Below, in pieces: positions 4,594-59,757 of a DNA stretch of 64,000 bases. The notes under the pieces were generated by a model. The model was given only the letters and a program-made list of their open reading frames with translations, did no database searches and was not told the DNA's origin. The stretch's first letter is position 1. Each line of letters opens with the position of its first letter. The position numbers were made by a program, and so were the translations under genes. The DNA comes from Rhynchopus sp. YZ270_cl-10. Its lineage: Eukaryota. The stretch is taken from NCBI GenBank assembly GCA_964035575.1, contig OZ037837.1, positions 806,001 through 870,000 on the forward strand, read 5' to 3'.

Positions 4594-6129
4594 CTCCCCT
4601 CCCGTCAGGTATCCTGTGTTCTTGTGGAGGGGTGGTTTGGATAGCTATGTATTCCCGATACTCATAAACACTTTACGCCTGGAGGGGTACGGTGCCACGA
4701 GGCAGAGGCACGAGGGTGGTTTTGGTAGGGGGATCTCCCTCAGAGGGCACCAGAGTGAGAGTCTCAGCAATTTCGAGCAAGACTCACAATAAGGAGGAGG
4801 GGAAGAGGTTAACGTCTTCTTGAGGAACACCTTCGTTCAGAAGAGCAGTCGTCTCCCTTGCGTTCCGGTACAGTTGTCCTCTTGTATGTTCGCAACTCTG
4901 CCACACAGGACGCAAACCCTTCCCCCCTACCTGTCAACAAAAGGGTTTGTGCACCCAGTAACCCTCCCCTAAGAACTGTGATTCCCCTCCGCTCCCTTAA
5001 CACCATTGACCCCTCTGTGCCCATGCACCCCCTCTTACGTAACCTACTTCCCGTTTGAGTTGTGTTAACCCAAAGGTCATACAGAAAGCCTGTGTACAGC
5101 ATGCAGACAACTCTAGCGGCGCCCCTACCTGGCTAGTGTGTGTAGTAACATACAGCACTGCATCGAAGGGGTTGTCCAAATGACACACAACGCACGCTCT
5201 TGCTTGTTGCCTTTACGTATTTACAGACCTGCACGAACAACGATGAGGATCATTGCTGCACTGCATCGAAGGGTTGCACAACTGGGGAATGCGTATGCGT
5301 ACCCTGCTTGACGACATCCTAAACCAAATAATCAGCGATACCATCCCAACGTGCAAAGTCTCAACCCAGGACCTCATCCCAAAACACTCAAGGTGTTTGG
5401 ATCTTTGCGCCACGACACAGCGACAGTATTGCTTAGACAACAACTGCTGCACAGTCACAATAGTCGCTGTGCACAAAGGGGGCAAGAAGTGAAGCAGGAA
5501 AATAGTTCAGGTATGGGTAGTGACGTGAAGGGTTTTGGAGAGAAAAATTAAATTTGGTTGGTTCTTCATTGGTTTGCTCTGGATTTATGTTTTGTGCTTT
5601 TTATTTTGAAAACTTGATTTTATTTAGCGTAGACACCCGAGGATGTACACCACTGCACCAACCGCTATAAAGTAACCTCATGAACACGGTGACATCTCTC
5701 CCTATTTGTTTGCTTGAAAAATAAAAGGTATTTTTTGTCTACAGTCAATGTTTTGGTCTTGTTGGACCTGAGAAAACGCGTGCATGTTGATCATACACAC
5801 GAACCATTGACACACTCCAACGAACTTCACATCGCGGGAAATGGGTTGACAAAAACTAGACGATATCACCCGCCAACTGATCTTGATAACAATAAAAATA
5901 TAACAGTGTTTTTCGTTGAACGCAGCCAAATAGGGGTAAAAATCTGTTTGGCGCAAGGTGAAAGGAATCAAGGGGAAATACTGTTATTGGTGCTCCTGAA
6001 AACCCCATTTTGCGTACTTATTGTGTACTTGCTGCGTACTTGTTGCGCACTTTGTGCACGAAAAATATATCCGTTTCGCTTGATCAGATCTCGACCGTTT
6101 GTTGCATTGCACGCTTCCACCTGCCGACA

Positions 6130-9081: not shown

Positions 9082-9191
9082 CGGGCGAGGGTTGTCTGAG
9101 TCGATTGAATTATTGTATTTTCCTGTTTGTTTGTGAGGGGGGTCTCGTGTTGTCGTTTTCTGCCTCTTTCGCTGGGGGGAGGAAAGAGCAT
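8241..9191 (-). CDS. Tyrosine recombinase (ORF2)
   Basis: Catalytic motifs GRASD (R), HSLRRG (HxxR), TRH (H) and LIRYV (Y) are intact. Confidence 0.92.
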   Translation of the reverse strand: MLFPPPSERGRKRQHETPLTNKQENTIIQSTQTTLARCLAESSWKSLQSTCRRYFEFKNAWEEKHTCTISHEVALIYWVEKKRSLDGVTESSALQYTMDVAAALRRTGDARLAESQMVQDYRRSLRRMGALMPGKQAKPARPSEVASAIELEKKPLIRLALAMCWVTAGRASDVLRLKKQEITIRPDGVVAVHWRETKGDPFQLGRFTGHHLTKTAQEILVQRLQAVRDQQGLVFPPGITSHQLGAALQRVNRELSSHSLRRGAAQFLLKQKVPLDEICLLTRHQTTESLIRYVAEAGLQRVDVTATMSQQLQAAM

Positions 9192-9206
9192 CTGCGCGTA
9201 GGGCAG

Positions 9207-10253
9207 TCAGTTCTTCCCCCCGCGTCCCCCCTTTCCCTGGTTCTCGGTGCGTCGGTCGCTGGTACGGTCGTAGTCCCTCTTCCTGTCGTTTTGGTTTGTG
9301 TCCCCTCGGTAACCCCCCGTGGTGCCTCGGTCGTTGTTTCGGTTGTACTCCTTCTTTTTATTCTTCCCCGCCTCTACCAGCTGCTCCAACATACGCGTCT
9401 GCAGCTGCACGGTGAAAGCTTCGGGGAGATAGCCGTTTGCCCTCTTCTCGTACGTCAGACGGATGTTCCTGCCGTATATGCCCAGATGGGTGGAGGCGGA
9501 CATGGTCACCACTACCCTGTGCAACACCGCCATCGTCCCCCCGTTGTCTGCTGGGTTTGGTTTTAAAGCGTTTAGAGTGGTGTCGAGGAAATCGAAATTG
9601 CGTCTCATCTCTACCTCGTGCTCGCGGGCCACATCAAGGTTTGCAGGAAGTGCGTATTCTTTGAATACTTTGCTGACTTCCGTCCTGATCAGTGTCTTCA
9701 CCTGGGGTACGTGTACGTTTTTCCATGTCCCGACCACCTCTGCATGGAAACCCTGGGGTAGTGCGAGGTTTCGCTGTTCCTCCAACGCCGTCATCCTGCC
9801 GTTCAACGCAACCATCTGGTCCCTCATCTGCATCAGGATCACCATCATGTCCTGCTGTTGTGGTGCGTTCTGTGGTTGTTGCTGCTGTTGTGCTGCGTTC
9901 TGCTGTGCTGGGATATCCGGTGCCGGGTCAGAAGCGTTGCTCACGGCGTCGTCCAGTGGGATCGCGAAAGCGCGTATCCACTCACACACTGGACACGACC
10001 ACCCCAACTCCAGAATGCCATCCGTGAACTCCGTGCGTGTTTGGCCCTGCGGGAGTACGTTGCGGATGCATGTCACCGTAGTTCGGTGGCCGCAGCGCCA
10101 GCAGTTTGCGCCTCCTCCGTGCACCGTGGCGCAGCTCGGGAACACGCATCCCGCCGCCGCCTCTGCCGGCTGCCCCTCTGCTCTGCCCACCTCCACCTGC
10201 GCCCACTCAACGTCGTGCGCGTTGGCGGGGAAGTCGTCCCGGGTAAGGGCCAT
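9207..10253 (-). CDS. gag-like ORF1 of the YR retrotransposon
   Basis: 348 aa: N-terminal Cys cluster (CVFPSC..CWRC..TC..WSCPVC), Q-rich linker, coiled coil, basic R/G-rich tail. First ORF of the element. Confidence 0.75.
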   Translation of the reverse strand: MALTRDDFPANAHDVEWAQVEVGRAEGQPAEAAAGCVFPSCATVHGGGANCWRCGHRTTVTCIRNVLPQGQTRTEFTDGILELGWSCPVCEWIRAFAIPLDDAVSNASDPAPDIPAQQNAAQQQQQPQNAPQQQDMMVILMQMRDQMVALNGRMTALEEQRNLALPQGFHAEVVGTWKNVHVPQVKTLIRTEVSKVFKEYALPANLDVAREHEVEMRRNFDFLDTTLNALKPNPADNGGTMAVLHRVVVTMSASTHLGIYGRNIRLTYEKRANGYLPEAFTVQLQTRMLEQLVEAGKNKKKEYNRNNDRGTTGGYRGDTNQNDRKRDYDRTSDRRTENQGKGGRGGKN

Positions 10254-10298
10254 GTTGACGGTTTGAAAAAAGGGCTCGTGGTCCCTGGCTCCTCTCTG

Positions 10299-10586
10299 GG
10301 CTCGTAGTCCCTGCTTTTGCTTTTTACTTCTGTATCCTTTTAGAGTATGGCTCGTAGTCCCTGCTTTTGCTTTTTACTTCTGTATCCTTTTAGAGTATGG
10401 CTCGTAGTCCCTGCTTTTGCTTTTTACTTCTGTATCCTTTTAGAGTATGGCTCGTAGTCCCTGCTTTTGCTTTTTACTTCTGTATCCTTTTAGAGTATGG
10501 CTCGTAGTCCCTGCTTTTGCTTTTTACTTCTGTATCCTTTTAGAGTATGGCTCGTAGTCCCTGCTTTTGCTTTTTCTTCTGTATCT
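10299..10586. repeat. 50-bp tandem repeat (~5.7 copies) in the 5' leader of the YR element
   Basis: Unit ggctcgtagtccctgcttttgctttttacttctgtatccttttagagtat at 10299, 10349, 10399, 10449, 10499 and partially at 10549. Confidence 0.95.
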
Positions 10587-20170: not shown

Positions 20171-21736
20171 GGTTGTATTAGTGTAGCCACCCTAGAGTGT
20201 GCTCCACTATACTAAACATTTTTATGTCACCGCAGACGAGCGCGATGATCTCTCTTGTGTGGCAGATGTCACACTGATGTCGCTGATACTACTACCCACC
20301 GGGCCATCATCAGATGGGGGTGGCGGAGCGGAGGGGGGGGCATTGATGGCGGATTTCTTCCGTTTTTTGGCAGTTTTGTCGCATGCTCTGGGAGAAGACG
20401 AGCGTTTTCTTTTTGAAGTACGTGTTGATGGATTCTGTTTACGGGAGGGGGGAGAAACAGAACGCTTTAGTTTTAAACTACGGTTGGGCTCAGGGTCACC
20501 CTCAGCAGGCGGCACGTCATTCTCGGCAGGCCGATCTCCTGTTGCGAGGACGTCGTCGATCATGTCACCCTCCGATGTGTCAGCAGAGGAAGTTGGAGGT
20601 GAAGACCACCTAGATGCTCTAGCTGATATGCTAGGGCCATAGGCATCGAGTGGTGCAGTTCCCCATACCGCGTCAGCAAGCCATCGGACGGACCGTGACA
20701 GCTGTGACCTGATAACAGCGATGCTATCGACACCAAGACGGGCACGCGGCGAGTGCCCACCCGCTACCTGGGGTGCACCAATGGGACGTAGGCTGTACAC
20801 GGTTTTGACACTGTTACCGGGCAGTGGGCACGTAATCTTGAGGTTCGTGCAGTGCTTCCGGAACCAACGAAGCCAGATGCCCATAGCTTTTCCGCGTTCT
20901 CGTGCAGACCATCCCGTGTTATCAGGTGCTCGCTCGTGCTGTAGGAGGAGGCCAGAGAAGACCTCGAAGTCGATACCAAGTTCAATGTTGCTGATGGAGC
21001 TCTTGTTGTCGTCCACAAACTCCAAAGACTTCAACCATTCCAAGAACGCAGTATGTCGCACAAGGCCATACTTCCAAGAGGAGGGTGGTGTAGAAGGTAA
21101 TTTGCTCCAGTCAAAGGTGATCGGGATCGTTGGTGTGACAGCGGCCTTGTCCCAGGGGAGACGTGCAGCTTCCTTGAGAAACTTAACACGATTAAGCCGC
21201 CAACGCTCTAAGATGATGCTCCCCATTAGCGTGTGGAGCGCAGACACATCGACTTTGCAGTTGAGGGGGACAACACCCCAGTTCACAAGGCACGGTTTCC
21301 ATGATGTACGGTCAGCAGAGGTAATCGCGTTAAACCTTGCGTCGCTTCGGATCTCGTTGAAAGCTGAGCACCTCCAGAAAATGTGTTCGTTGGTGTCTTC
21401 TTCCTGCGCCTCGCAGTGGGGGCAGTGGCTGGAGTGAGCAAGAGTACCTACGGCCTTGTCGTCCGAGGAGTCGCAGTCGTAATCGGAGCTGCTGTCAGCC
21501 TCCGAGCTTTCTGTGGCACCGTCGCCGGTGTCGGACTCATCGTCGCAGGCGTCACTGTCGTTGGCGGTGGGTGCAAGGATCGTCGGACGCTGGTTCGCCC
21601 TGTACACACCACCTGAGATGACTGCCGTCAACGCATTGGATAGGTCGGTGTTTCCCTTTGCGAGTCGGGTCGCGTTGGTTCTTTTGGTGTCAATACCATT
21701 TTCAATACCTTCGTAGGAGGGACGTGCAATGGCCAG
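20171..21736 (-). mobile_element. 5'-truncated non-LTR retrotransposon (C-terminal part of ORF2)
   Basis: ORF 20222-21631 stays open up to the truncation point; CCHC finger CPHC..EHIFWRC typical of LINE C-termini; ~20-bp imperfect TSD ttcgcgattttt(gaa/ttt)aactt at 20151-20170 and 21737-21756. Confidence 0.75.
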
Positions 21737-22439
21737 TTCGCGATTTTTTTTAACTTAGCACTGCATGTGCTTAGAAAACCCGAATTTTTTACCCTTCAAA
21801 ATTGCATTTGAGGAACTCACAACGCATCAAAACGAAAAGGTCGTTTTTGGCACTTTTAAAACCGGGCTCCGCTGAGTTCACCATATTTTTGGTCGATTTA
21901 TTTAGTGGAGTAACTAATTAGTAATCGCATTTTCGGACAAAAACTCGGGACGAGGTGATAAAAACTCGTCCATTTCGGCAAATTGACCCCACCACAGAAC
22001 CGGCGGATTCAGGAAATGCAAATGCCGGTGTTTTCGGGCAAAATGAAATACTCCCCCCTTCTTTATTTATTCGTTGTTTGTTGTTTGTTGATCGCATCCA
22101 TCCTCGTCCGTACTTCAGGAAAAGCACACAGCACTTTTGGTGGTATTGAAATGCCCTTTGTGAAAACCGTCCGCACTTCTTTTTTTTTTTTTTTTTTTTT
22201 TTTCAAACCCCAAAAGTCCCGAAAACCCCGAAAAACCCGCGTCCTGAAGTACGGGGGAGAGGTGGAGCACAAAAGGGGGGAAGGGGAAACGGTAAGACTC
22301 ATGGCAACCGAAGAACGCGTCTTTCATTTCCAGACGTATTGCATACTCGTACAAAATGAAATACTCCCCCCTTCTTTATTTATTCGTTGTTTGTTGTTTG
22401 TTGATCGCATCCATCAGGACCCTTAATAGGGACGCGCAG

Positions 22440-24240
22440 CGCTCTCGAAGAGAGAAGTGATCGCCTGTGGTTGTTCGTTTTCCTTCGATTTGTCTCCTCT
22501 GGTGTATTTGTCTTCTCTCTGCTGTTTTGTCCCCACGCTGAACGCACCTCCGGGTCATCCCTTTCTGCTTTGTCGTCGCAAACATTTCCGACAGAATGGC
22601 GTTCGCCGCGTAGTTGCTGCTGTCCCCGCTCAATGCAGAGTTGTCGACCTTCATGTGTACAGTGCACGCGCTGGTGTATTTTGCCGCCAATAGTACAGAC
22701 TTAGCCGCCGCATACAGCTCCTCAGGAAAATTGAGGTGTCCTGTCCCGCGCCGACCGTTCCCTGCGCTACCTTTCTCTCGTCTTCGTTGACTTCCAAGAT
22801 GCTACCCATTCTGCTTTTGGGGCGTCAGACCACACTATGAGTGTCTTAGTGGGGGGTTGTTGGATCCAGTAGTTCGTCGTCATCAGCGATACCCGCTTTC
22901 GCACTTCGGAAATCACGCTGCAATTTAGGCCAAAAAATTTTCTCAAAATCCGGGTTTGTAGTATTGACTTCACCTTCTGTTACCCGTAGTGACCGCTATT
23001 CTGCTTCATTATCGTACCACCCTGCTTGTAGGTGTGTTTGCCAGTCACCCAAATTATCATGAAACTCTCGCGAGAGAGGTTTTTAAAAAAGCTAGTGCAA
23101 GAAATTCGCTTTGTAATCCGGAAATTCTGTCCCGCTTGCAGAGGTTCAAAAAGTATGCTTCTGTCTATTTCTTTTTGATCGTTCTTGTATTGCAGCGTGA
23201 TTCCAAACTCCTCGGTACGCGCACGTGAACAACGTTGTGCGATCGCAGGAGCGAACGGCCATCCCATCGCCAAAAAATAATAAAAAACCCCTATCATCTT
23301 TTGTTAAGTTGGTACGCTACCCACGTCATACGCCGATCTCCTGCGGTGTTGACTCCAAAAAACAAAGAACTGTTGAATGTTATTGTCTTCTTTGACATTT
23401 GCGGTGGCGGACCCCTCGACCTTTTCAGTTTTCTGCCATCCACGAATCGTAAGCTCCCCGACTTTTTCTCCACAGTGAAGGCATGCAGAATCACTTCTTG
23501 GGGGCTTGCAGATGTTCGCGACAGGACGCCGAAGTCGATGAGGGTATCCAGATGTTGATCCATGTGGCGCGAGGTACCTCTCCTTATCCCTGCTTGCTTG
23601 TCCCAACCCTCCTTCAGGTGTGATACGAACGTTTCTCTCTTTCGGATGATCTGCAGAATGTCTTCCAGCTCGTTCTCCTTGTCGAGGCTCACCAGTGTGT
23701 CTAGATGTCGCCGCAATGTAGTCCTGGTCGGTTTCTCCTGCATGCGCCTCGGCGGGCCGAGCGTTTGTGGCGCTGCTTCGTCGGTACGCATAGGGAGTTG
23801 TCGTAAAGGCTCCGTGTCGTGTCGCGTGATCATCTGGATCTGTTCCAACGGTACCCTCTTGTCGTTGAGGTGGTGCGCCGCTCCTCGCCTTAGGGAGTGA
23901 GGGGTGAGGTTCTGCTTCACTCTTTTGGCTCAAAATAGGTTTGTAACGCTGCTGATGGGAACATGTGTTCCAGTGTTCGCTTCTCTAAACACAGAATGAT
24001 CGCCTCGTCGTAACCTAGCTCTGTCTTCATGTGGTACTCCCAGTTTGTCTTGAATTCATTCAGGCGGCCGCACACTTCGCAGCTCCCTCATGTAAGAAAC
24101 CCGATAGCGCCCGTGACAGAGTGTGCTGCGCCTTCGCCAGCTTGCTCTGCGGTGAGTGGCAGTTTCCTTCTCCCGAGATACGTAGGAAGTCTTTCGTCCA
24201 GCAAACGCTCAGGCTGCGGGGTCGGCTCGTGGTAAGATAT
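22440..24240 (-). pseudogene. Frameshifted and deleted YR and RT-RNaseH remnants
   Basis: Motifs are scattered over ORFs 23294-23920, 22980-23297, 22767-22973 and 22376-22690. Confidence 0.8.
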
Positions 24241-41067: not shown

Positions 41068-44000
41068 TCACGATGCGATAAGCTCATACTCGTCAGATTC
41101 CTCACCGTGTTCCTTAACACGCGTCCTGCGGTGCAACACCACACCCGCAAGCCCCACAAATGCGAGAACACCCGCCGCAAGCAACACCCACACCCACCAA
41201 CGTGCCCTGCTCTCCTCCCCCCCTAGCAGCGGGGAGCCTGTCTCGGGAGGACCAGTCTCCCTGTCCCGTGCACCGTCAGGTTCACTGTCAGGACCCTCCG
41301 TCTCATTGGCTACGGGAGCCACTGTGGTGCTCGGTGTCGGTGTCGCAACTATAACAGGCGAAGTAGTGCTCGGCATAGGTGTACTAGGGGCAGATGTGGA
41401 AGGTGAAGTAGTGCTCGGCGCTGGTGTACCAGGTGAAGATGTGGAGGGTGAAGCCGTGCTCGGCGCTGGTGTACCAGGTGCAGATGTGGGAGGTGAAGGC
41501 GTGCTCGGCGCCGTAGTGCTAGGCAAGGGTGTGGGCGGTGACAAGGTGCTTGGCGAGGGTGTTAACGGCACGTCTGTCCACGCCGACTCGTTGCATTGGC
41601 GGAGCCTGAAGTATTCAATCGTGTTCGTGTCGGAGAATCTGACAATCCGGTCCACGTGTGTTGGAGAGGAGCAGGCGCCCGCAGTCTCGAGCACACCATT
41701 CACGTACAAATAACACACGTCGTCAAGAGAAACTGCCGCGTGCAGACTGTACGTCGTGTTCATGGGGAACACAGCTCTGCTCCTCACCCCGGTAGATGTC
41801 GTCCCGTGCACCACGTCTAAGTAAAACCCCCCAAAGCGACCATTGTCGTCGTCCCGAGGGTATGTCCCCAAGTTCACCCCTGCCCCACCCTCTCCGTCAG
41901 CGGAGCTGAACAGCGCTGAATCCAGTCGAAACTCCGCCACCGTCACGTTCACATCAATAACAATGCCACCGCCAAAAAACACCTCTTGTGTGTCCTGATC
42001 GGTGTTGAGGTTGGGTGCGTCTAACTCAAGTTCAGTCTCCAATTGACACTGCGGCACTTCCAGTGGCTGCGACGCTGTAGGTGTCACGTTGCATGCATGC
42101 AGGCTGACGTCTGAAATGGTGCCGTCAAAGGGAAGATACGAATCAACGTCGTATCCGATGAAGTTGTAGCGACGTTCCACGTAGGTGGGAACGGGACATT
42201 CCCCGAAGGCATCGAGAACACCGTTGATGTACAGATAGCACTTTCCGACTGTGCTCCACAGGTCACCTCCGGGAACCACAACTGCACGTACGGAGTACTC
42301 CACGTTCGTGTCGATTGTGAATGTACGGCTGGTAATCCCGCGCAGGCTCCACGACCCATGGCTCGTACCAAAGAAGAGCTTGGTGGTGTTGCGGGGTTTG
42401 TACAACTGCACCACGTCGTTGCTGTTTGGGTTTGAAAAGTTCACGATCGCAGCTTCCCTCTCAGAAGAGGACACTGTCACGTTGGCGTGGAGCACCAGCC
42501 CACCACCGAAGAACAGCGGGCGGTTCGGGTCAAAAGAAGCGCTGTTCTCGAACTCAACGACAGTCCGGAGGTTGCACGCAGGTGCCGCTAGTGGTTGCGA
42601 CACAGTCGGTGTCATCTCACACGCTTGGAGGCTGAAGTCTGAGATGGTCCCGGGGAATGGGTTGGCGTTGTCGGACAGGAGGCCGTCACCGATGAAATTC
42701 ACACGCCGCGTCACATTGTTCGGAATGGCGCACGGACCGTTCGCTGACAGCGTACCGTTCACAGTCACAAAACATGCGCCTGTTGTCGGATCCGCACTCC
42801 CGGGGACTGCTGCGATCTCGACTCGGTTCTCTCCCAACGCCAGGCTGGCGTTGATTCCAATGAAACTTCCGCTCACATAAAACGTAAGCGTGCGGGAGTC
42901 GACATACGCACTCACAATGTCGCCTTCGTTTGAGAAGGTAAACGCGTAATGTCTGGCGCCCTCGAAATGTGTGAGATTGACGGTCATCGTAATCACGACC
43001 CCACCACCGAAAAGCAGCGGGCGGTTTGGGTCAAAGGAGGTGCTGTCCTCGAACTCAAGCTCGGTCTTCAGGCTGCACATAGGTTGCATCGGCGTGAATT
43101 TGCAGGCACTCAGGCTCACGCCTGAAATATTTCCCATAAATTGTCTTTCGCCGCCCACCACATCGTTCCCGGTCAAATACGGGCGACGCACCACAAATCC
43201 TGGAAAGGCACATTCACCGACAGCGTCAACCACGTCGTTGATGTAAATATAACACATGACTCTGTTCACAGGATTCGCTGCAACAGTTGCCACCCGCACT
43301 CGGTACAGAACGTTTCTGGACAACGACGTGCTGGAAGCAATGCTTTTGTTGCCAATGCTGAACAAGATATGCCCGTTTTGCCCTTCCTGTAGCGTCACAA
43401 TGTTGCCGGCTGCACCACATGAGAAGTTTGCGATTGTTGCGTTTGTAACGTAAGACACCATGAAGACGTCCAATTCCATCACAATAGCATCACCGAAAAG
43501 GACCCAGGGCACAGTCCCAAACTTTGATCCAGAAAGCGGAACGGTCGTGAGACCGTGGGGGCAGACGGGCTCCCTCGGAGGATGCGTTGCTGTCACATCG
43601 CACGCACGCAGACTGAAGTCGGAAATGCTCCCGCCAAATTTGAAATCGTTAATGGGCATGTAAATACCGCGAACAGCAAGTCCGCGCCCGGCGAGATTAA
43701 AGTTGCGCTCAATGTGGTTCGGAACGGGACACTCGCCAACATTATCAAGCAGACCGTTGATGTAGATGTAACACGCTCCGTCCGCGCTCGGGTCGCTTCC
43801 AGGTACAATTACTATCAGCAGTTGGTAGGAAGGGGAAGAGTAGTAAGAAGCCAACTTGGTTGCACTGTAGAACCAGTTCCAGTCACCATCCACACGGCTT
43901 TTAAGTGTGATCAGTCCGTACCTACCGATAGACAACTCGAGAACGTCGTTCGTGCCGTTGATGGATGAGGTGAAGAGAATCGCATATCTTTCATCGGCCG

Positions 44001-45294
44001 AGGGGAGTACCACAGACACGTTCATCTGCAGCGCAATGCCGCCTCCAAAGAACAGCGGGCGGTTTGGATCAAATGAGCTTTCCTCTGCAAACTCAACCTC
44101 GTTCCGCAGCGTACATGACGGAAGGACCACTGGCTGCGAAACAGTCGGTTCTACCAAACACGCACTCAGATTGAAGTTGGAAATGTTTCCATGAAACTTC
44201 TTCTTGTAGCCAGCTACATCTACTCCATCTTCGCCGAACCGGTTTACTCGGTATTCGACTGCGACATCCGGAATGGGGCATTCTGTGGAACCTTCCCTGA
44301 CACCGTTCACGTACAGGGAACAGTTGCCCTGTGTCGGGTCGTTGCCGGGAACCATTGCAATGTGCAAAGTGTACTCGACGTTTTCCACAAAAACGCTGCG
44401 GCTGTAAATATAAGAACTGCTGGTCCCCACTTTTGTGCTGAAGAAAAGGTAGTGCCTCCTCGTGTAGTCGTCATACGACCCTTCCAAAGAAAAACCATTT
44501 GTTTTAGTAGCCTCGAAAGAAAATATGTTCTCGTTGTCCACCGACCACCACCCGGTTCGTATTAGTTGCATGGTGATCACAACCCCACCACCGAAGATCA
44601 GCGGGCGATTCGCATCAAAAGAATCAACGTTCAAAAATGCAAGATCGCTCTGCAGGTCACACTGTGGTTCCATCGCGGGTAGCGCCACAGTTGATGTCAC
44701 ATCACAAGCACGTAGGGAGAAGTTCGAGACAGTTCCAAGAAAGGGCAAACTATTTGATTTGTACCCCTGTCCAAAGTAAATGTCCTCACGATTCACATAG
44801 CTAGGAGTAGGGCAGTAACCGGAAGCCGTCAGCGAACCGTTTAAGTACATCTTGCACGTTGAGAACGCGTCATATAAAGGAACCGCAACAATTTTCAGGT
44901 TGTTCGTCATTTCATTAAATACGTATGAGGTATCTTTGACGCCGGTAAACGCGTGTGTCGCACTGCTTGTTCCGAAGTATAACTTCTCGTCATAGTCTGT
45001 GCCCATGTTGAGCTGCAGTACATCCTTACCGTTGTCTGAAAAGCTGAAGATCGCAGAACCAGGCCGACTAAAGTCTATATCGTTCTGCGTATAGTTCAGC
45101 TCAATCACAAACCCACCTCCGAAGAACAACGGTCGGTTCGGATTAAAGGCGCCGATCTCGCTAAACTCAAGAACAGTCTGAAGTCTGCAAGCCGGTAGGA
45201 CAACAGCACCGTGAGTTGCAGCAAAACACACACAAATAAGGACACACAGACTTCTCTGCGCAGAGTTGCCCCGGGGGTTTCTGCTGGTGTGCAT
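41068..45294 (-). CDS. Type I membrane protein with 7 LamG/concanavalin-A-like repeats and a mucin-like stalk
   Basis: ATG at 45294; signal-like LCVLICVCFAATHGA; repeats C.L...LEF....FDPNRPLFFGGG...CYLYING...G.C..P...F.G.ISDFSL.AC; P/S/T stalk; TM WWVWVLLAAGVLAFVGLAGVVL; short tail ending YELIAS. Confidence 0.85.
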   Translation of the reverse strand: MHTSRNPRGNSAQRSLCVLICVCFAATHGAVVLPACRLQTVLEFSEIGAFNPNRPLFFGGGFVIELNYTQNDIDFSRPGSAIFSFSDNGKDVLQLNMGTDYDEKLYFGTSSATHAFTGVKDTSYVFNEMTNNLKIVAVPLYDAFSTCKMYLNGSLTASGYCPTPSYVNREDIYFGQGYKSNSLPFLGTVSNFSLRACDVTSTVALPAMEPQCDLQSDLAFLNVDSFDANRPLIFGGGVVITMQLIRTGWWSVDNENIFSFEATKTNGFSLEGSYDDYTRRHYLFFSTKVGTSSSYIYSRSVFVENVEYTLHIAMVPGNDPTQGNCSLYVNGVREGSTECPIPDVAVEYRVNRFGEDGVDVAGYKKKFHGNISNFNLSACLVEPTVSQPVVLPSCTLRNEVEFAEESSFDPNRPLFFGGGIALQMNVSVVLPSADERYAILFTSSINGTNDVLELSIGRYGLITLKSRVDGDWNWFYSATKLASYYSSPSYQLLIVIVPGSDPSADGACYIYINGLLDNVGECPVPNHIERNFNLAGRGLAVRGIYMPINDFKFGGSISDFSLRACDVTATHPPREPVCPHGLTTVPLSGSKFGTVPWVLFGDAIVMELDVFMVSYVTNATIANFSCGAAGNIVTLQEGQNGHILFSIGNKSIASSTSLSRNVLYRVRVATVAANPVNRVMCYIYINDVVDAVGECAFPGFVVRRPYLTGNDVVGGERQFMGNISGVSLSACKFTPMQPMCSLKTELEFEDSTSFDPNRPLLFGGGVVITMTVNLTHFEGARHYAFTFSNEGDIVSAYVDSRTLTFYVSGSFIGINASLALGENRVEIAAVPGSADPTTGACFVTVNGTLSANGPCAIPNNVTRRVNFIGDGLLSDNANPFPGTISDFSLQACEMTPTVSQPLAAPACNLRTVVEFENSASFDPNRPLFFGGGLVLHANVTVSSSEREAAIVNFSNPNSNDVVQLYKPRNTTKLFFGTSHGSWSLRGITSRTFTIDTNVEYSVRAVVVPGGDLWSTVGKCYLYINGVLDAFGECPVPTYVERRYNFIGYDVDSYLPFDGTISDVSLHACNVTPTASQPLEVPQCQLETELELDAPNLNTDQDTQEVFFGGGIVIDVNVTVAEFRLDSALFSSADGEGGAGVNLGTYPRDDDNGRFGGFYLDVVHGTTSTGVRSRAVFPMNTTYSLHAAVSLDDVCYLYVNGVLETAGACSSPTHVDRIVRFSDTNTIEYFRLRQCNESAWTDVPLTPSPSTLSPPTPLPSTTAPSTPSPPTSAPGTPAPSTASPSTSSPGTPAPSTTSPSTSAPSTPMPSTTSPVIVATPTPSTTVAPVANETEGPDSEPDGARDRETGPPETGSPLLGGEESRARWWVWVLLAAGVLAFVGLAGVVLHRRTRVKEHGEESDEYELIAS

Positions 45295-46909
45295 TGTGTC
45301 TGTTGGTATCCCTTTCCTGGAGTTGGCGGTGTTGGGGGTTTTGGGGGTTCCTCTCCTCCGACTAGAAAACAACTGCTGCACAGTCAAAATAGTCTCTGTG
45401 CACAAAGGGGGGCAAGAAGTACAGCAGGAAAATAGTTCAGGTATGGGTAGTGACGTGAAGGGTTTTGGAGAGAAAAATATGTTCGGTTGGTTCTTCTTTG
45501 TTTTGCTCTGGGTTTATGTTTTGTGCTTTTTATTTTGAAAACTTGATTGTATGTATCGTAGACACCCGAGGATGCACACCACTGTACCAACCGCTATTAA
45601 GTAACACCTCATGAACACGGTGATCTCTCTGCCTTTTTTGTTTTCCTCAAAAAAAAGCATCGCGTCTACGTACTGGTTTTGTCGTACCTGAGAAAACGCG
45701 TGCATGTTGCATACACACGCGTCATTGCACCCAACGATGAGGCTCATTGACACACTCCAACGAACTTCACATCCCGGAAAAATGGTATGACGAAAAGAGC
45801 AACAATACAAAAGCGATAAGACAAAAACTAAGCCTACTCTGCTTAGTCACACGTACCTTTTTCATTAAAGGACAGCCATACATGGGGGCACAGACAGCAC
45901 ACCTTCCCCAGGGTGTGGCAGGGTCCCTCGCTGAAAACGTGGGACTCTCACCTCACTTTTCTTTCTTAATCCCAGAACTAGACACGCACACAAACACCCC
46001 TCCCCTACCTTACCCTCCCTCCCCTCTGCCCCTCTGACCAATGAAACGTTAGTAGCCACCCTCATTTATAAAGAAAAGTTTGACATGAAATACACCAGAA
46101 CGATCGTGAACAGTGTACCTTGGTACAACTGGTGTACCGGGTGTACCCCAACCATGCACAGTCCAACATCCATTTTGTGATTTACATCTACAAAGTACAG
46201 GAACAAGAAGGGAAAAAGCAAACAAACACAGACACCCCTCCGAAGGGCCGTTGTTTTCGGTTAATATTACACCCTAACAACCACTGCCTTCTGGTCTGCA
46301 AAACGCAAATTGATATCACCACGTACACCACTATTAAGCAGTGCATCCCATAGACGTAAACCATCTTGTCACAAACGGAGAAAACAAAAACACAAAAACA
46401 AAGACCGATGCCAAGCCCTAGCCTCATAGAGGCGTCTGTGCTAGGGTGAAGCGCAAACCAGACTGGGCCAAAGTCTCAACTCAACTCAGTATCACACGAC
46501 GGGAAAGAAAAGAGGGTCAGTTCTCCACGAATCCGTAGAGATACAAAACACCTGCTTGAAACCCACAGCAGTGTTCCAAACATCCAAAACCCAAAAAATA
46601 AAAACAAAACCAATTTGGTGGACACACTTCTCATCCTAAGAAGGACCCCATCCTCACCTTCCCTCACCCAAACCCCAAAGAAATGCTCTGTTGTTCACAA
46701 CACCCAGCCAACCCCCTCAAATCCTCCCAATTGTTTCGTATGACTCATCCCAACAAACCCCACCTCACTCTGTCACCACCTCCCAAAAATAATAAAGAAG
46801 CACACCTCAGCACAGTGCAGAGCAGCCGTCGTGCAGCTGACCACACAGTGCGAGGGGTGAAGATGCAACAACAACAACTGTTACAAAGTGAACGCTTTCT
46901 TGCTTCTCA

Positions 46910-48652: not shown

Positions 48653-49380
48653 TTTTTCTGTGTTTTCTGAGATCTGTGTGTGGATCGTGAGTGTGATATT
48701 GTCTGTCATTGACACGTGGTCAAAACCAGTCAGGTAAGTGACAAGTGAATTACTTGTCGCTTCGCTTGTCAAAGAAATGACGAGTGACATCACTTGCCAC
48801 CTATCGTTGGCCGTGTCGTGCATCGGTTGCCTCCTCCGAAGCATGCACAACCGCTGCTGCGATGCCTTCCCAAGACAAAGCATTTCATCACTTTTCGCCT
48901 TTCTTTCAACTACTCCCGAGGGGCCAAGCTCCCCTTTCTAGTTGTGCGGAAATGTGTGAAGATGTGTGAAGATGTGTCATCAAGAAAAGAACACAAAACA
49001 CAAAGCTTTGCAAGACGAACCTGAGCCTCGCATGATAATCACCTGAAAAGGAGAGGGGGTGCCTCTTGGGGTGTGTGCTTTTTTATTTGAGATCGGTTTT
49101 CTTCTATCGACAATGACCCACAAAAGAGGGGCTTTTTCGGGGGATTGTTTTTTCCATCAACAACTGCCCAGGGAAAGGCACAATATATTATTGGGTACAG
49201 TGCTAGCTTCCTCAAAGAGACGTGTAGCGGGTGGTATGCAGTACTCAAAATGTATTTGGCATCCAACAAAAGTCCACAAAATTAGTACAAAAATCACCAA
49301 ATTGGTATAGCTGTAAAGGGGTGATTCACTTCAAAACAACATAGCTGCACTTTTCCTTTCCATGCAAGGTCGTCAACGCT

Positions 49381-49995
49381 ATATTAAACTTGAAAAACGT
49401 GATCCACCCCGCAAAAAGAAAAAGCAGCAAAAGGGAAGGATGGCACCACGGTGTGCCAGAGAGTGGCTTGATCCCATTTGCTGACTTATACCCAACAAAG
49501 ACGACACCTAAGTGAACAGGGGCCGTATACCACCGCTGGTGGCCTAGGTCAGTATATAAGCCAGTTCAAGGCCCGCACTCTGGCAGCGTCAAAAGAAATA
49601 AACAACAATAAAACCACCAGTCATTCCAATGGGAGGAACGAATGACTGGCATCTCCTAATTCTCTAAACTGCGGTGAGTGGAACACCCAACTGATGCAAA
49701 CCACTGCCGCAGGTTAGCACCTACAAAAAGCAAAGAAAAGCAAAGAAAAGAAAAGCAAAAGCTCTGCATGGTAGTAAAGTAGGTGCAGGGTCGCTTAAAT
49801 CCCTGAGGGCACAAAAAGCCCAGCATACACCTCCTCCAGTTGCTTTGGACCCTCCAGTATCATGTGCCCGGGTTTGCAAAAGTGCAATGCAACCATCCCA
49901 CGCGTGGCCTTCGTTCACTCAAAAAAAAAAGAGATTATATCCGGGGACGCCAGGGCAAAAATGCCGGGGGGCAGCCACCTCACGTTTTTGTCCCC
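49381..49995 (-). mobile_element. 615-bp short non-autonomous retroposon
   Basis: 17-bp TSD gcaaggtcgtcaacg(c/a)t at 49364-49380 and 49996-50012; no TIRs; 5' ribozyme fold. Confidence 0.85.
49904..49995 (-). ncRNA. HDV-like self-cleaving ribozyme
   Basis: P1 GGGGAC/GUCCCC, P2 GUGGCU/GGCCAC, P3 GCC/GGC, P1.1 CC/GG, weak P4 CUC/GAG, J4/2 CGAA; starts at nucleotide 1 of the insertion. Confidence 0.8.
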
Positions 49996-51082
49996 GCAAG
50001 GTCGTCAACGATGTGCACCAGTGGAGGAAGTGCTGCCCAGCGGCCGTGACAGCTTGCAACCCACTTAGATCAACTTTTTTTCATACACTCAGTTTGTTAA
50101 AACAAATAACCGCTAATCCCCTCCCCCCGTCTTCCGAAAAACAGAACATTTTTGCCTACAGTTCACATATTGGTCTTGTCGGACCTGAGAAAACGCGTGC
50201 ATGTTGCATACACATGCACACTTACACCCAACGATGAGGCTCATTGACACATTGCAACGAACTTCACATCCCGGGAAAATGCTATGACGAAAAGAGCGAC
50301 AAAAATACAAAAACGAGAAGACAAAACTAAGCCTATTGTGCTTAGGCACACGTATTTTTCCATTAAAGGACACACATGGGGGCAGAGACAGCACACCTTC
50401 CCAGGGTGTGGCAGGGTCCTTTGCTGAAAGCACGGGACTCTGGCCTCACTTTTCTTTCTTTATCCCAGAACTAGACACACACACAAACACCCCTACCCTC
50501 CCCTCCCCTCTGCTCCCCTCACCAATGAAACGTTAGTAACCACCCTCATTTATAAAGAAAACAAAGACTGATGCCAAGCCCTAGCCTCATAGAGGCGTCT
50601 GTGCTAGGGTGAAGCGCAAACCAGACTGGGCCAAAGTCTCAACTCCATTCAGTATCACACGACGGGAAAGAAAAGAGGGTCAGTTCTCCACGAATCCGTA
50701 GAGATACAAAACACCTGCGTGAAACCCACAGCAGTGTTCCAAACATCCAAAACTCAAAAATGAAAACAAAACTAATTTAGTGGACACACTTCTGATCCTA
50801 AGAAGGACCCCACCCTCACCTTCCCTCACCCAAACCCCAAAGAAATGCTCTGTTGTTCACAACACCCAGCCAACCCTCTCAAATCCTCCCAACTGTTTCG
50901 TATGACTCATCCCAACAAACCCCACCTCACTCTGTCACCACCTCCCAAAAATAATAAAGAAGCACACCTCAGCACAGTGCAGAGCAGCCGTCGTGCAGCT
51001 CACCACACAGTGCGAGGGGTGAAGATGCACAACAACAACTGCTCCAAAAGTGAACGCTTTCTTGCTTGTCACTCGCGTAAGT

Positions 51083-56130: not shown

Positions 56131-57798
56131 TCAATTGAGCAAGCTTCGGGGTAGACTCAGACTTATAGTTTTGAAAACAACATAGCTGCACTTTTCCTTT
56201 CCCTGCAAGGTCGTCAACGCTGTGCACCAGTGGAGGAAGTGCTGCCCAACGGCCGTGACAGCTTGCAACCCACTTAGATCAACTGTGGACAATGATGCGC
56301 ACCCAAAGAGGAAGTTGTTCCCAATCGAGGTGACAGCATGGAATCCACTCAAGTCAACTGTCGATAATGATGTGCACCCGAAAAGGAAGTTGCTCCCAAT
56401 CGAGGTGACACCTTGCAATCCACCCAATTCGACTTTGGTCAAAGCTGTGCAGTCACGAAGGAAGTCGTTCCCGATCACAGTCACAGCAGACGCATGACTG
56501 AGATCAATGCACGTCACTGCAGAACTCGAGAAGAAGTAGTCTGGAATCGCAGTCGCAACTTGTGCCTGCAGGAGCAAGCAAGCCACCTTCGGATCAGTCA
56601 CCTGCTTCAATCTTGCTTCTGCAAATATTGTCTCACCCAACGCACGAAGTTCTGCAATGGCATCATCCTTCCTCTGTGTGTTGACCTGCGTTACAACAAC
56701 CCTGTGACCCCTCAGCTGCACCACGTCCTCTCCTTTTGCAATCACTTCATCTCTGAAAGTCATGTCGAAGCCGTCTTCACGCAACCTCACTGCAGACGCC
56801 ACCTTCCGAAGCAAGTCCCTGCCCGTGTCATCCACACTCACCTCAATCTCGTGTTCCACTCCATCCAACCCCTGCACAAAGACAGGCACAAAAAGCGCAG
56901 ACACCTGGGCAAGGGCGTCGTGCACGTTCGAAACAGGCAGATTCAGGGAAAACTTTGCGTGTGGGTCTGCAGCACCCACAAGGCGGTGGCGGTCTCCACT
57001 TGGCGCTGCCATGCTGTTGATGTTCCGCACAACGGCCTGCGACTCTGTGAATGCACGCAGCACCTGGTCATTCCCAAGCTGGCACACCGCCTCACACTCA
57101 GCAATCATGTGTCCTGCCTTCGCAACAAACGTCTTCAGCGCACACACCTCCCCTTCACGACTGAGTGCCTGTGTGAGGAAGCTCCGTGCCAACTCCTCCT
57201 CACACACGACTTCGCTGCGCGACACATCCTCACGCATCACGAGGTGCCCGACGTGTGTCTGCAGGAGAAGGTCTTTGTATCTGTCTTTGTACCTGTCCTC
57301 CGTGGGTGGGAGTGCCTCAAGCACATGGCACTTCTCCTCTGCAGCAGTCCGCTGTGCTTCCAGGTCTGCCACGTGTGAGCAGAGGGTGTCACGCTGGCGT
57401 TTCATGTAGTCCGTGATGTCAACTGTCTTGTGTCCCGCATGTGTGTCGCACTTGTCACAGCGCATGCAGATCAACGCGTCTCCACACGCAGGGTCTTCAC
57501 AGACGAGGCACAGCTCTTGGCCTGGGTGATGTGCACACTTCGACGACGCTCCGAACGAAGTCACAGAAGCGCGATGTGCCTCACGGTCACGTGGCCTTGG
57601 GTGGCAAGCGTCATAGCACGCAGGTGTGTCGCAGAAGAACAGCTCCACGCACATCCCGCACTGCAGCTGTGCAAGCACGCCACAGTTCTCACAGCTCGGC
57701 ATCTGTGGTGCGGTGGGCTGCGTGTCAGACCCCATGTTGTGTGTTTTGAAGAGGTGGGAGGGTGCAGGGGTGTCTGGAAGGGGTTGGGTGGGTGGCAT
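56131..57798 (-). CDS. B-box/CC/UBL/LRR protein, copy F (3 core LRRs, variant C-terminus)
   Basis: Paralogue; DRYK micro-duplication; tail KCSYVVFKTISLSLPRSLLN. Confidence 0.88.
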   Translation of the reverse strand: MPPTQPLPDTPAPSHLFKTHNMGSDTQPTAPQMPSCENCGVLAQLQCGMCVELFFCDTPACYDACHPRPRDREAHRASVTSFGASSKCAHHPGQELCLVCEDPACGDALICMRCDKCDTHAGHKTVDITDYMKRQRDTLCSHVADLEAQRTAAEEKCHVLEALPPTEDRYKDRYKDLLLQTHVGHLVMREDVSRSEVVCEEELARSFLTQALSREGEVCALKTFVAKAGHMIAECEAVCQLGNDQVLRAFTESQAVVRNINSMAAPSGDRHRLVGAADPHAKFSLNLPVSNVHDALAQVSALFVPVFVQGLDGVEHEIEVSVDDTGRDLLRKVASAVRLREDGFDMTFRDEVIAKGEDVVQLRGHRVVVTQVNTQRKDDAIAELRALGETIFAEARLKQVTDPKVACLLLQAQVATAIPDYFFSSSAVTCIDLSHASAVTVIGNDFLRDCTALTKVELGGLQGVTSIGSNFLFGCTSLSTVDLSGFHAVTSIGNNFLFGCASLSTVDLSGLQAVTAVGQHFLHWCTALTTLQGKEKCSYVVFKTISLSLPRSLLN

Positions 57799-59757
57799 GG
57801 GATGGAAACAGAGTATGCGTTCAAGACTGCAGCACACAGGAAAGGTGAGTGAGAGGCTGGTGTGTAGATGAGGATGCAGCTGGGTCAGGGATCAGGGATG
57901 CTCGACGTCCTGGCACCGAGGCTGACTCAGAGATGCGCTGCACAGTGTATGGGGTGTGGGGAAGTGGAACATCAGGTGAGGCATGTGGGGTTGCTTTGTT
58001 TTTGGTCTTTTCCTTACCACCTGTTGTCAGAGGTGGGTCTTTTTTTCATACACTCAGTTTGTTCCAAAGTCGATACAACAAATAACCGCTAATCCCCTCC
58101 CCCGTTTTCCCGAAAAACACAACATTTTTGTCTACAGTTAACATATTGGTCTTGTCGGACCTGAGAAAACGCGTGCATGTTGCATACACATGCACACTTA
58201 CACCCAACGATGAGGCTCATTGATACACTGCAATGCACGAACTTCACATCCCGGGAAAATGCTATGACGAAAAGAGCGACAAAAATACAAAAACGAGAAG
58301 ACAAAACTAAGCCTATTGTGCTTAGTCACACGTATTTTTTCATTAAAGGACACACATGGGGGCACAGACAGCACACCTTCCCCAGGGTGTGGCAGGGTCC
58401 TTTGCTGAAAGCGCGGGACTCTGGCCTCACTTTTCTTTGCTATTCCCAGAACTAGACACACAAACACCCCTCCCCTCCCCTACCCTCCCCTCTGCACCCC
58501 TCACCAATGAAACGTTAGTAGCCACCCTCATTTATAAAGAAAACAAAGACTGATGCCAAGCCCTAGCCTCATAGAGGCGTCTGTGCTAGGGTGAAGCGCA
58601 AACCAGACTGGGCCAAAGTCTCAACTCCACTCAGTATCACACGACGGGAAAGAAAAGAGGGTCAGTTCTCCACGAATCCGTAGAGATACAAAACACCTGC
58701 GTGAAACCCACAGCAGTGTTCCAAACATCCAAAACTCAAAAATGAAAACAAAACCAATTTAGCGGACACACTTCTGATCCTAAGAAGGACCCCATCCTCA
58801 CCTTCCCTCACCCAAACCCCAAAGAAATGCTCTGGTGTTCACAACACCCAGCCAACCCTCTCAAATCCTCCCAATTGTTTCGTATGGCTCATCCCAACAA
58901 ACCCCACCTCACTCTGTCACCACCTCCCAAAAATAATAAAGAAGCACACCTCAGCACAGTGCAGAGCAGCCGTCGTGCAAGCTGACCACACAGTGCGAGG
59001 GGTGAAGATGCACAACAACAAAATCCTGCAAAAGTCAACATTTCTGGTTTCTCACTGGCGTAAGTGTTGTGGTAGCTTGCTGAGTACAGCCTTGCTGCAC
59101 TTGTCCTTTCCATGCAAGGTCTTCAATGATGTGCACCCGTCAAGGAAAGCATACCCAACGGCCGTGACACGTTGCAATGCACTCAAGTCCACTGTGGACA
59201 AGGATGTGCAACCGTGGAGGAAGAAGTTCCCAATCGAGGTGGCAGCTTTGAATCCACTCAAGTCAACCGTCGACAATGATGTGCACCCGAAGAGGAACTG
59301 GTGCCCAATCGAGGTGACAGTTTTGAATCCACTTAGATCAACTGTGGACAAGGATGTACACCCTTGGAGAAAGCTGTTCCCAATCGAGGTGACAGCTTGT
59401 AATCCACTCAAGTCAACCGTCGACAAGGATGTGCACCTAAAGAGGAAGTGGCTCCCAATCGAGGTGACACCTTGCAATCCACTCAAGTCAACTGTGGACA
59501 AGGATGTGCACCCCAAGAGGAACCCGTCACCAATCGTGGTGACAGCTTGTAATCCACTCAAGTTAACTTTGGTCAAAGCTGTGCAGTCACGAAGGAACTC
59601 GTTCCCAATCACAGTCACAGCAGACGCATGACTGAGATCAATGCACGTCACTGTAGTTCCTTTCAAGAAGAACTCGTCTGCAATCGCAGTCGCAACTCCT
59701 GCCTGCAGGAGCAAGCAAGCCACCTTCGGATCAGTCACCTGCTTCAATCTTGCTTCT

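Follow-up and report, generated by a model that had tools for sequence, protein, structure and literature searches.

Background

Short, non-coding retroposons that are flanked by target-site duplications (TSDs) and fold into an HDV-like structure from nucleotide 1 are known as NARTc, RIME, TSIDER1 and SIDER (PMC4035085, PMC3185411, PMC3820030; these and the other papers cited by PMC number are drawn on here for part of their text). The ribozyme of L1Tc (L1TcRz) cleaves at nucleotide 1 and starts with C, and L1Tc itself has a poly-A (PMC3185411); short elements of the ingi clade have upstream target motifs and a TSD of 12 bp (PMC3820030). RHS genes of trypanosomes constitute insertion hot spots for ingi/RIME and L1Tc (PMC6967402), and a 5' HDV-like ribozyme is also carried by non-autonomous, R2-derived SIDEs (PMC6765202, PMC3774820). 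Insertion into multicopy sequence characterizes CRE/SLACS, R2, R4, NeSL, Utopia, Tx1 and R1 (PMC4640811, PMC3414825). The target list in the consulted part of PMC4640811 comprises genes (rRNA, snRNA, tRNA and spliced leader) along with transposons, microsatellites and telomeres; it does not name protein repeats.

The locus analysed here lies within a 64-kb stretch of Rhynchopus sp. YZ270_cl-10 DNA (contig OZ037837.1, positions 806,001 to 870,000; hereafter the window) and harbors a 615-bp element whose closest precedents are, by analogy, trypanosome NARTc/RIME and the RHS hot-spot genes. Like NARTc, RIME, TSIDER1 and SIDER, the element is short, non-coding and TSD-flanked, with an HDV-like fold from nucleotide 1, a conserved target motif upstream and a likely release from polycistronic RNA. 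Its relative site specificity, with a conserved motif upstream, is similar in kind to that of the ingi clade, but the motif itself is different. Differences from the trypanosomatid L1Tc/ingi clade, whose short elements bear a Pr77 signature of 76-79 bp, concern the TSD, which measures 15-17 bp (about 18 bp inferred at other sites) where the clade has a constant 12 bp, the missing poly(A), the two-pair P1.1 and the 18-nt L3; moreover, the element starts with G, L1TcRz with C. As TSD length and tail features disagree, the element is not placed in the ingi clade.

The likeness to RHS targeting lies in a multicopy protein-coding family on which a ribozyme-headed retroposon preferentially lands; unlike RHS, what is targeted here is one codon register of a repeat unit inside the gene, which provides several sites per gene. 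With R2-derived SIDEs the element shares a (predicted) 5' HDV-like ribozyme on a non-autonomous body, and with the target-specific non-LTR elements an insertion into multicopy sequence, although its specificity is relative (7/9 junctions) rather than strict.

A probable retroposon inserted into an LRR-gene remnant

The insertion, its duplication and the host are laid out as follows.

49381..49995, minus strand: retroposon, 615 bp, non-coding, without a poly(A) tail; stop-free frames of its own strand shorter than 70 codons
49996..50012, minus strand: 5' copy of the TSD (exact 15 bp at 49996-50010)
49364..49380, minus strand: 3' copy of the TSD (exact 15 bp at 49364-49378)
49996..50075, minus strand: host, LRR-gene remnant upstream of the element (last LRR unit)
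49330..49380, minus strand: host, downstream part of the LRR-gene remnant
56171..56284, minus strand: empty paralogous site inside the intact LRR gene 56131-57891, with the 17-mer at 56205-56221
49721..49760, minus strand: polypyrimidine tract ending in TAG, a splice/trans-splice acceptor look-alike by sequence only

The element (49995-49381) is present once in the window, as judged by similarity comparison, and its minus-strand sequence and start at G49995 agree with the first-pass annotation. The 615-bp insertion with its TSD is genuine: the paralogue at 56284-56171 contains a single 17-mer and no insert, and differs from the element flanks at 2 positions over 80 bp upstream and 2 over 51 bp downstream. 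The TSD, initially described as 17 bp long, is exact over 15 bp and reaches 17 bp with one mismatch allowed. The host remnant of ~115 bp is what is left of a duplicate of the 56131-57891 gene after deletion, namely its last LRR unit, and the spacer upstream of it (50074-51082) shows 94% identity to 58039-59065; the LRR frame of the host is interrupted by this copy. In public sequencing runs, the same element ends occur with other flanks. The TSD, the empty paralogous site and the several insertion sites bear out the original designation as a short retroposon, and the element very probably is one. LTRs, terminal inverted repeats and internal repeats are all absent, leaving a subterminal 10-nt inverted match as the only such feature, and a stop-to-stop frame of 180 codons on the opposite strand overlaps the element.

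Two observations concern the element body. The polypyrimidine tract at 49721-49760 is a candidate (trans-)splice acceptor, which could alter processing of the host transcript. The region 49476-49725 (minus strand) contains several strong hairpins and a multibranch domain, without an Rfam match; folding of the whole element is moderately above that of shuffles (z -2.63, 0/20 shuffles as good).

Predicted HDV-type fold at the element start

The predicted ribozyme is composed of the following parts.

49904..49995, minus strand: predicted HDV-like ribozyme, 92 nt here and 88 nt in other copies; cleavage predicted 5' of G49995
49995-49990/49948-49943, minus strand: P1, 6 Watson-Crick pairs, pair probabilities 0.57-0.97
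49978-49973/49909-49904, minus strand: P2 (first pseudoknot), 5 Watson-Crick pairs and one U-G
49972-49970/49951-49949, minus strand: P3, closing L3
49968-49967/49942-49941, minus strand: P1.1, CC with GG
49952..49969, minus strand: L3, 18 nt, with C49969 as the position-20 equivalent and G49964 as the position-25 equivalent
49954..49965, minus strand: L3 hairpin, 4 bp, its 5' arm holding the G25-equivalent
49914-49940, minus strand: P4, weak
49910..49913, minus strand: J4/2, CGAA, predicted catalytic C at 49913
49980..49989, minus strand: J1/2 stretch, 10 nt, complementary to 49393-49402
49393..49402, minus strand: 3'-end partner of the J1/2 stretch, possible 5'-3' RNA pairing

P1, P2, P3 and P1.1 lie in the correct order for a nested double pseudoknot that begins at element base 1. 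The catalytic C expected in J4/2 (C-N-R-A) directly before P2' is found in CGAA (49913-49910), and P1, which should span 6-7 bp from the cleavage-site nucleotide, comprises six pairs from G49995. The relaxed HDV-like descriptor, composed with the sequence already known and permitting C as the first L3 base and an L3 of up to 25 nt, yielded a single match over the 128,000 positions of both strands, located precisely at 49995; when the first 130 nt were dinucleotide-shuffled 20,000 times, it yielded none. With the catalytic C replaced by A, G or U, there were 1 (same locus, shifted register), 0 and 0 matches, respectively. The full nested double pseudoknot with CGAA that had been proposed for this sequence is recovered with all helices as drawn, and the HDV-type topology at the element start is not chance. 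No Rfam ribozyme model was hit: Rfam returned 0 matches at the gathering score and 6 weak ones at E up to 10, no ribozyme family among them.

The coincidence of the predicted cleavage site with the element's 5' end, likewise part of the first-pass annotation, agrees with the copies elsewhere. Where contigs contain the element body, they part from the window flank at 49995 (runs X5 and X10) or at 49999 (X3, where four flank letters align).

The unconstrained folding ensemble is pseudoknot-free and cannot represent the pseudoknots; in it, P1 reaches 0.57-0.97, P3 0.10 and the L3 hairpin 0.18, and a competing UGCC/GGCA hairpin 0.76-0.78. Once P1 and P3 are forced, the pair probability of the L3 hairpin rises to 0.93-1.0. 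The inverted match between J1/2 and the 3' end, situated 6 and 12 nt inside the element ends, has a duplex energy of -12 kcal/mol; matches of at least 10 nt occurred in 39 of 20,000 shuffles (30-nt end windows), the match having been noticed post hoc. Speculatively, this pairing could form and leave the core intact.

The fold shares with the HDV, CPEB3, drz-Agam and theta ribozymes (PMC4908430, PMC3386971, PMC13635239, PMC10879173) the nested double pseudoknot, G1, a 6-bp P1, a 3-bp P3, a two-pair G-C P1.1 and the catalytic C in J4/2. In contrast to them, it has C for U at position 20 and an L3 hairpin that includes the G25-equivalent. Natural insertions described in the consulted parts of the same papers are located in J1/2 and P4. 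In the literature covered, no report of a diplonemid ribozyme was found, and the main text of the D. papillatum genome paper contains 0 occurrences of 'ribozyme'.

The L3 departure and ribozyme activity

L3 of HDV-like ribozymes usually measures about 8 nt. Here it measures 18 nt, and the U20-G25 trans pair is missing, since position 20 is a C and the G25-equivalent is taken by the L3 hairpin; the pair is not obtained in any register drawn by hand. Two kinds of register were rejected. A 7-bp P1 using the C at -1 does not restore U20, and most copies are without C at -1; P3 shifted to GCU or UGCC does not restore U20 either (all drawn by hand). The stem in L3, originally taken as an atypical extra, does form with P1 and P3 forced, but it is no mere extra, as it occupies the G25-equivalent. 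The 6-bp P1 had been called atypical as well, which is incorrect: according to the consulted part of PMC4908430, P1 comprises 6 or 7 bp in most HDV-like ribozymes.

The position numbering (20, 25) follows PMC3386971 and PMC13635239, the former of which regards the U20-G25 pair as part of the HDV family signature. Among 16 combinations at positions 20/25 of the antigenomic HDV ribozyme, U/G, C/A, U/U, G/G and U/A are active, the four non-U/G variants being 232- to 528-fold slower; C/G is absent from these 5/16 (PMC3386971). In a nematode cellular HDV-like ribozyme, G25A strongly impairs, nearly abolishes, cleavage (PMC13635239); HDV positions 20 and 25 are not addressed in the consulted part of PMC9901934. 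The missing signature makes cleavage more doubtful, and more interesting, than first claimed, and on the model presented here the predicted ribozyme has roughly equal chances of being active or inactive.

Shortening L3 by 10 nt gives a loop of 8 nt in which G stands at position 25. The sequence thereby looks like a canonical loop that has an insert close to its 3' end, which may have arisen by local duplication of the P3 strands, and such a loop could form if the insert bulged out. There are three options: formation of the hairpin with a rebuilt site, a looped-out insert, or a dead ribozyme. The C at -1 of this copy can also lengthen P1 into the P1.1 G, an extension that lowers L1TcRz cleavage (PMC3185411).

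If the element cleaves, it breaks the rule (U20 and G25 invariant, L3 short) on which descriptor searches for HDV-like ribozymes rely, and such searches would miss a class; it would also offer a natural test of rebuilding the catalytic Mg2+ site. If it does not, it would be an ordinary SIDE/SINE with a decayed ribozyme, and the interest rests on targeting alone. Novelty of the L3 hairpin is weakly established: no report of such a hairpin in HDV-like ribozymes was found in the literature covered.

Copies in public sequencing runs

Parts of the element are contained in 18 public runs of 12 studies, one of which runs may be the source sample, and eight of the runs contain half or more of its words. 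Seven runs of six studies were aligned, with X4, X6, X8 and X11-X18 left out. The copies are near-identical across the seven runs (in the first set of runs, the longest element contigs show 4-7 substitutions and 6-7 gap letters relative to the window), so no stem covariation is readable. The U10 run described at the outset is present in the window copy, but is shorter by 4 nt in all seven runs; in X7, about half of the summed depth there has the shortening. One further substitution, shared by 4/4 runs of the second set, is placed at ~49985-49992 from contig boundaries, its letter unread, and could touch P1 or J1/2. Variants of the ribozyme in single contigs consist of a gain or loss of 1 nt in the C-run adjoining the L3 hairpin and of one change after GG. 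Save for these length changes of the C-run, no variant listed for the aligned runs falls in the L3 hairpin.

Sequencing depth of the element exceeds that of its flanks: ~3485 compared to 90-124 for two long flank-bearing contigs in X9, and 2400-2800 compared to ~87-120 for flank-bearing contigs in X2. These ratios suggest some 25-35 copies, with the reservation that depth is not copy number.

No diverged relatives were found in the collections scanned (viral contigs, metagenomes and prokaryote genomes). Pattern scans of viral contigs gave 12, 4 and 0 stretches, and upon inspection the upstream fold was missing from the 12. The metagenome scan, for which the pattern was too loose, reached 25 of 64 parts and yielded 120 stretches out of some 320 estimated. 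None of the 136 scanned loci aligned to the element, and the four of them with a possible P1 resemble, by eye, GC-rich coding sequence; this outcome does not speak for absence. The one match in prokaryote genomes, from an alphaproteobacterial MAG, is coding-like, without P1 or P2', and was set aside as chance.

Two runs contain contigs of a separate kind. In X1 (RNA by guess only; contigs from one study), the element contig stops at 49989, and there are two 3' junctions and no 5' junction. A 634-letter contig of X2 matches the element only at 49623-49717, with 8 substitutions and 5 gaps; its ends come loose at 49616 and 49678, and it perhaps represents a related element family with a common internal module.

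Target sites in LRR units

Junctions were collected from loose-end tables (all 10 rows of one set, the best 12 of 39 of the other), in which rows with a flank resembling that of the window are favoured. Outside the window, one side only of each insertion is visible, and the flanks were translated by hand. There are six distinct 5' flanks and three distinct 3' flanks; among the rows listed, four of the six (X5, X10 and two in X7) and all three (two in X1, one in X2), respectively, lie in LRR units in gene sense.

X5, 5' flank: C-T-S-L-T-S-V
X10, 5' flank: C-T-S-L-T-T-L
X7, first 5' flank: C-T-S-L-T-M
X7, second 5' flank: C-R-S-L-H-T
X1, 3' flanks: L-T-S-I-D-L-S-G and L-T-S-L-D-L-S-G
X2, 3' flank: L-T-S-V-D-L-S

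The four LRR 5' flanks end 23 nt past the start of the Cys codon, and the window copy at 22 nt. Among the rows listed, 7/9 junctions outside the window are LRR-coding and share the orientation and codon register of the window copy, a bias observed in a small sample. Two 5' flanks are off the LRR register, one common to X2, X3 and X9 and one in X2. Restricted to the junctions free of the listing bias (X3, X5 and X10 body contigs, and both X1 flanks from 4/4 X1 contigs), LRR units are hit in 4/5. In-register sites, with 1-nt slop, make up ~8 of 10,000 positions even in the LRR-rich window; 32 of the 35 motif sites there are within LRR genes.

In X9 (8/8 contigs), one shared base at -1 has a depth of 2700 and one shared -1/-2 pair a depth of 2350, the body being at 3485; comparison with X5 and X10 suggests that the shared -1/-2 letters are GA, the start of an Asp codon. 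Over a would-be duplication of ~16 bp, the 5' flank from X5 agrees with the 3' flank from X2, which would fit a second insertion bearing a TSD of its own; the two stem from different runs, and the X2 side is partly derived from aligned letters. Leu-Thr is present at 7/8 LRR junctions (the window included, as well as biased rows), as compared to 81 of 305 units of the host family (59/74 proteins), and this enrichment suggests that the DNA word TTGAC matters.

A real preference for LRR-coding sites is likely. In the titles and abstracts covered, no report of LRR-targeting retroposons was found. In-register landing in a protein repeat would widen target-specific retrotransposition past RNA genes, microsatellites and RHS genes, would point to a LINE endonuclease, so far uncharacterised, whose recognition site is codon-like, and would act as a mutational force on a large LRR family.

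Proposed mechanism and alternative explanations

The reading that we favour is that of a young non-autonomous non-LTR retroposon, freed from read-through transcripts of the host by a predicted 5' HDV-like ribozyme and pasted by the borrowed enzyme of a LINE at a fixed position of the LRR unit; the case for this combination is evenly balanced. Copies in the sense orientation of LRR genes would be co-transcribed with them. The first 88-92 nt of the RNA would fold into the double pseudoknot and be cut 5' of G1, probably slowly or via a rearranged loop, given the C at position 20 and the engagement of G25 in the L3 hairpin. An autonomous LINE would then bind the 3' end of the element and nick a TTGAC-centred site, usually at the Ser/Ala-Leu-Thr codons of a C-x-S-L-x-x-V-D unit, and target-primed reverse transcription would generate the duplication of about 15-18 bp. 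Similarity comparison within the 64-kb window revealed no autonomous partner or LINE with the same 3' end; this counts against the proposal, as does the lack of both a poly(A) and a tandem-repeat tail. Speculatively, the single-stranded J1/2 might pair with the 3' end and keep both RNA ends together. A bolder version, in which an HDV-like ribozyme active without U20-G25 and with an L3 hairpin resides on an LRR-codon-homing retroposon with paired RNA ends, reshuffling the LRR repertoire of a marine protist, seems rather unlikely.

The ribozyme part faces its strongest competitor in an LRR-targeting retroposon whose ribozyme is vestigial or inhibited, an L3 insertion of ~10 nt and the U20-to-C change having occurred in the master copy and the 5' end being supplied by an internal promoter or the machinery of a partner. 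The C at position 20, the sequestered G25 and the dominance of the competing hairpin in the nested ensemble all suit this explanation, and there are precedents: among the Pr77 folds of trypanosomatids, some have been disrupted or lack activity (PMC4035085), and Pr77 doubles as a promoter with the same start base (PMC3185411). The precise 5' end could, by analogy with Pr77, equally reflect an internal promoter. Yet CGAA and each of the four pairings are preserved, and no stem mismatch is listed in the seven runs (the unread 5' substitution could hit P1), and removal of 10 nt leaves an 8-nt L3 with G25, a loop that might form with the insert looped out. A vestigial or inhibited ribozyme is a serious contender, which we rate as somewhat less probable than the proposed mechanism.

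Targeting itself would be dispensable if one or a few LRR insertions had been multiplied by tandem gene duplication and gene conversion in LRR arrays. The window is indeed an array of duplicated LRR genes, with the host remnant itself a deleted duplicate of the 56131-57891 gene, and recurrence of one 5' flank in X2, X3 and X9 indicates that some insertions are common to several samples. However, the LRR flanks diverge within a few bases of the junction and belong to different repeat units, the window TSD copies the distinctive terminal unit hosting the element, the junction moves by 1 nt between sites, and the flank peptides are mostly missing from 76 family proteins (1/7 motifs found, in 2 proteins), which renders multiplication by duplication distinctly improbable. 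Still less credible, to the point of being nearly dismissed, is an element mobile at the DNA level, either MITE-like or derived in non-autonomous form from the tyrosine-recombinase retroelements of the window, with an incidental fold. The 10-nt inverted match between the ends, the missing poly(A) tail and the RT and tyrosine-recombinase elements of the window might hint at it, but the match is not terminal, no similarity of those elements to the one studied here was found, and the fold starts exactly at base 1 (0/20,000 shuffles). Besides, a duplication of 15-17 bp, shifting from site to site, is in keeping with target-primed insertion.

Gene neighbourhood

The window consists of tandem arrays of long open frames, with ~8 copies of a gene of ~550-680 residues ending in BspA-type LRRs. 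These tandem genes (13896-61826, minus strand) encode a Cys/His-rich region (B-box-like by eye), a ubiquitin/FERM-N-like domain and the LRRs, and the family displays variable repeat number, deletions and chimeric copies; for one of its proteins, 74 close relatives were found on long contigs of a protein collection.

A DIRS/Ngaro-like retroelement is located at 6556-10373 (minus strand), comprising a frame of 933 codons that weakly matches RVT_1 (below cut-off), a tyrosine-recombinase frame overlapping it (Phage_integrase, E 3e-7) and, upstream, a gag-like frame; an apparent degraded relative of it is found at ~23294-23984. The 510-codon frame at 20222-21754 (minus strand), with a CxxC...HxxxxC motif, no Pfam match and an Atlas lead to zf-RVT (0.89; a lead only), is probably the 3' part of a truncated LINE; compared with the element ends, it shows no similarity.

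Two tandem membrane proteins of ~600 residues are encoded at 417-2192 and 2791-4644 (minus strand), with no Pfam match and at least 400 relatives; their C-terminal half may be a degenerate nucleotide-cyclase domain. The frame at 41068-45513 (minus strand) corresponds to an intronless surface-type protein of 1481 codons, with repeated Laminin_G_3/ConA-like domains and a Pro/Thr/Ser stalk.
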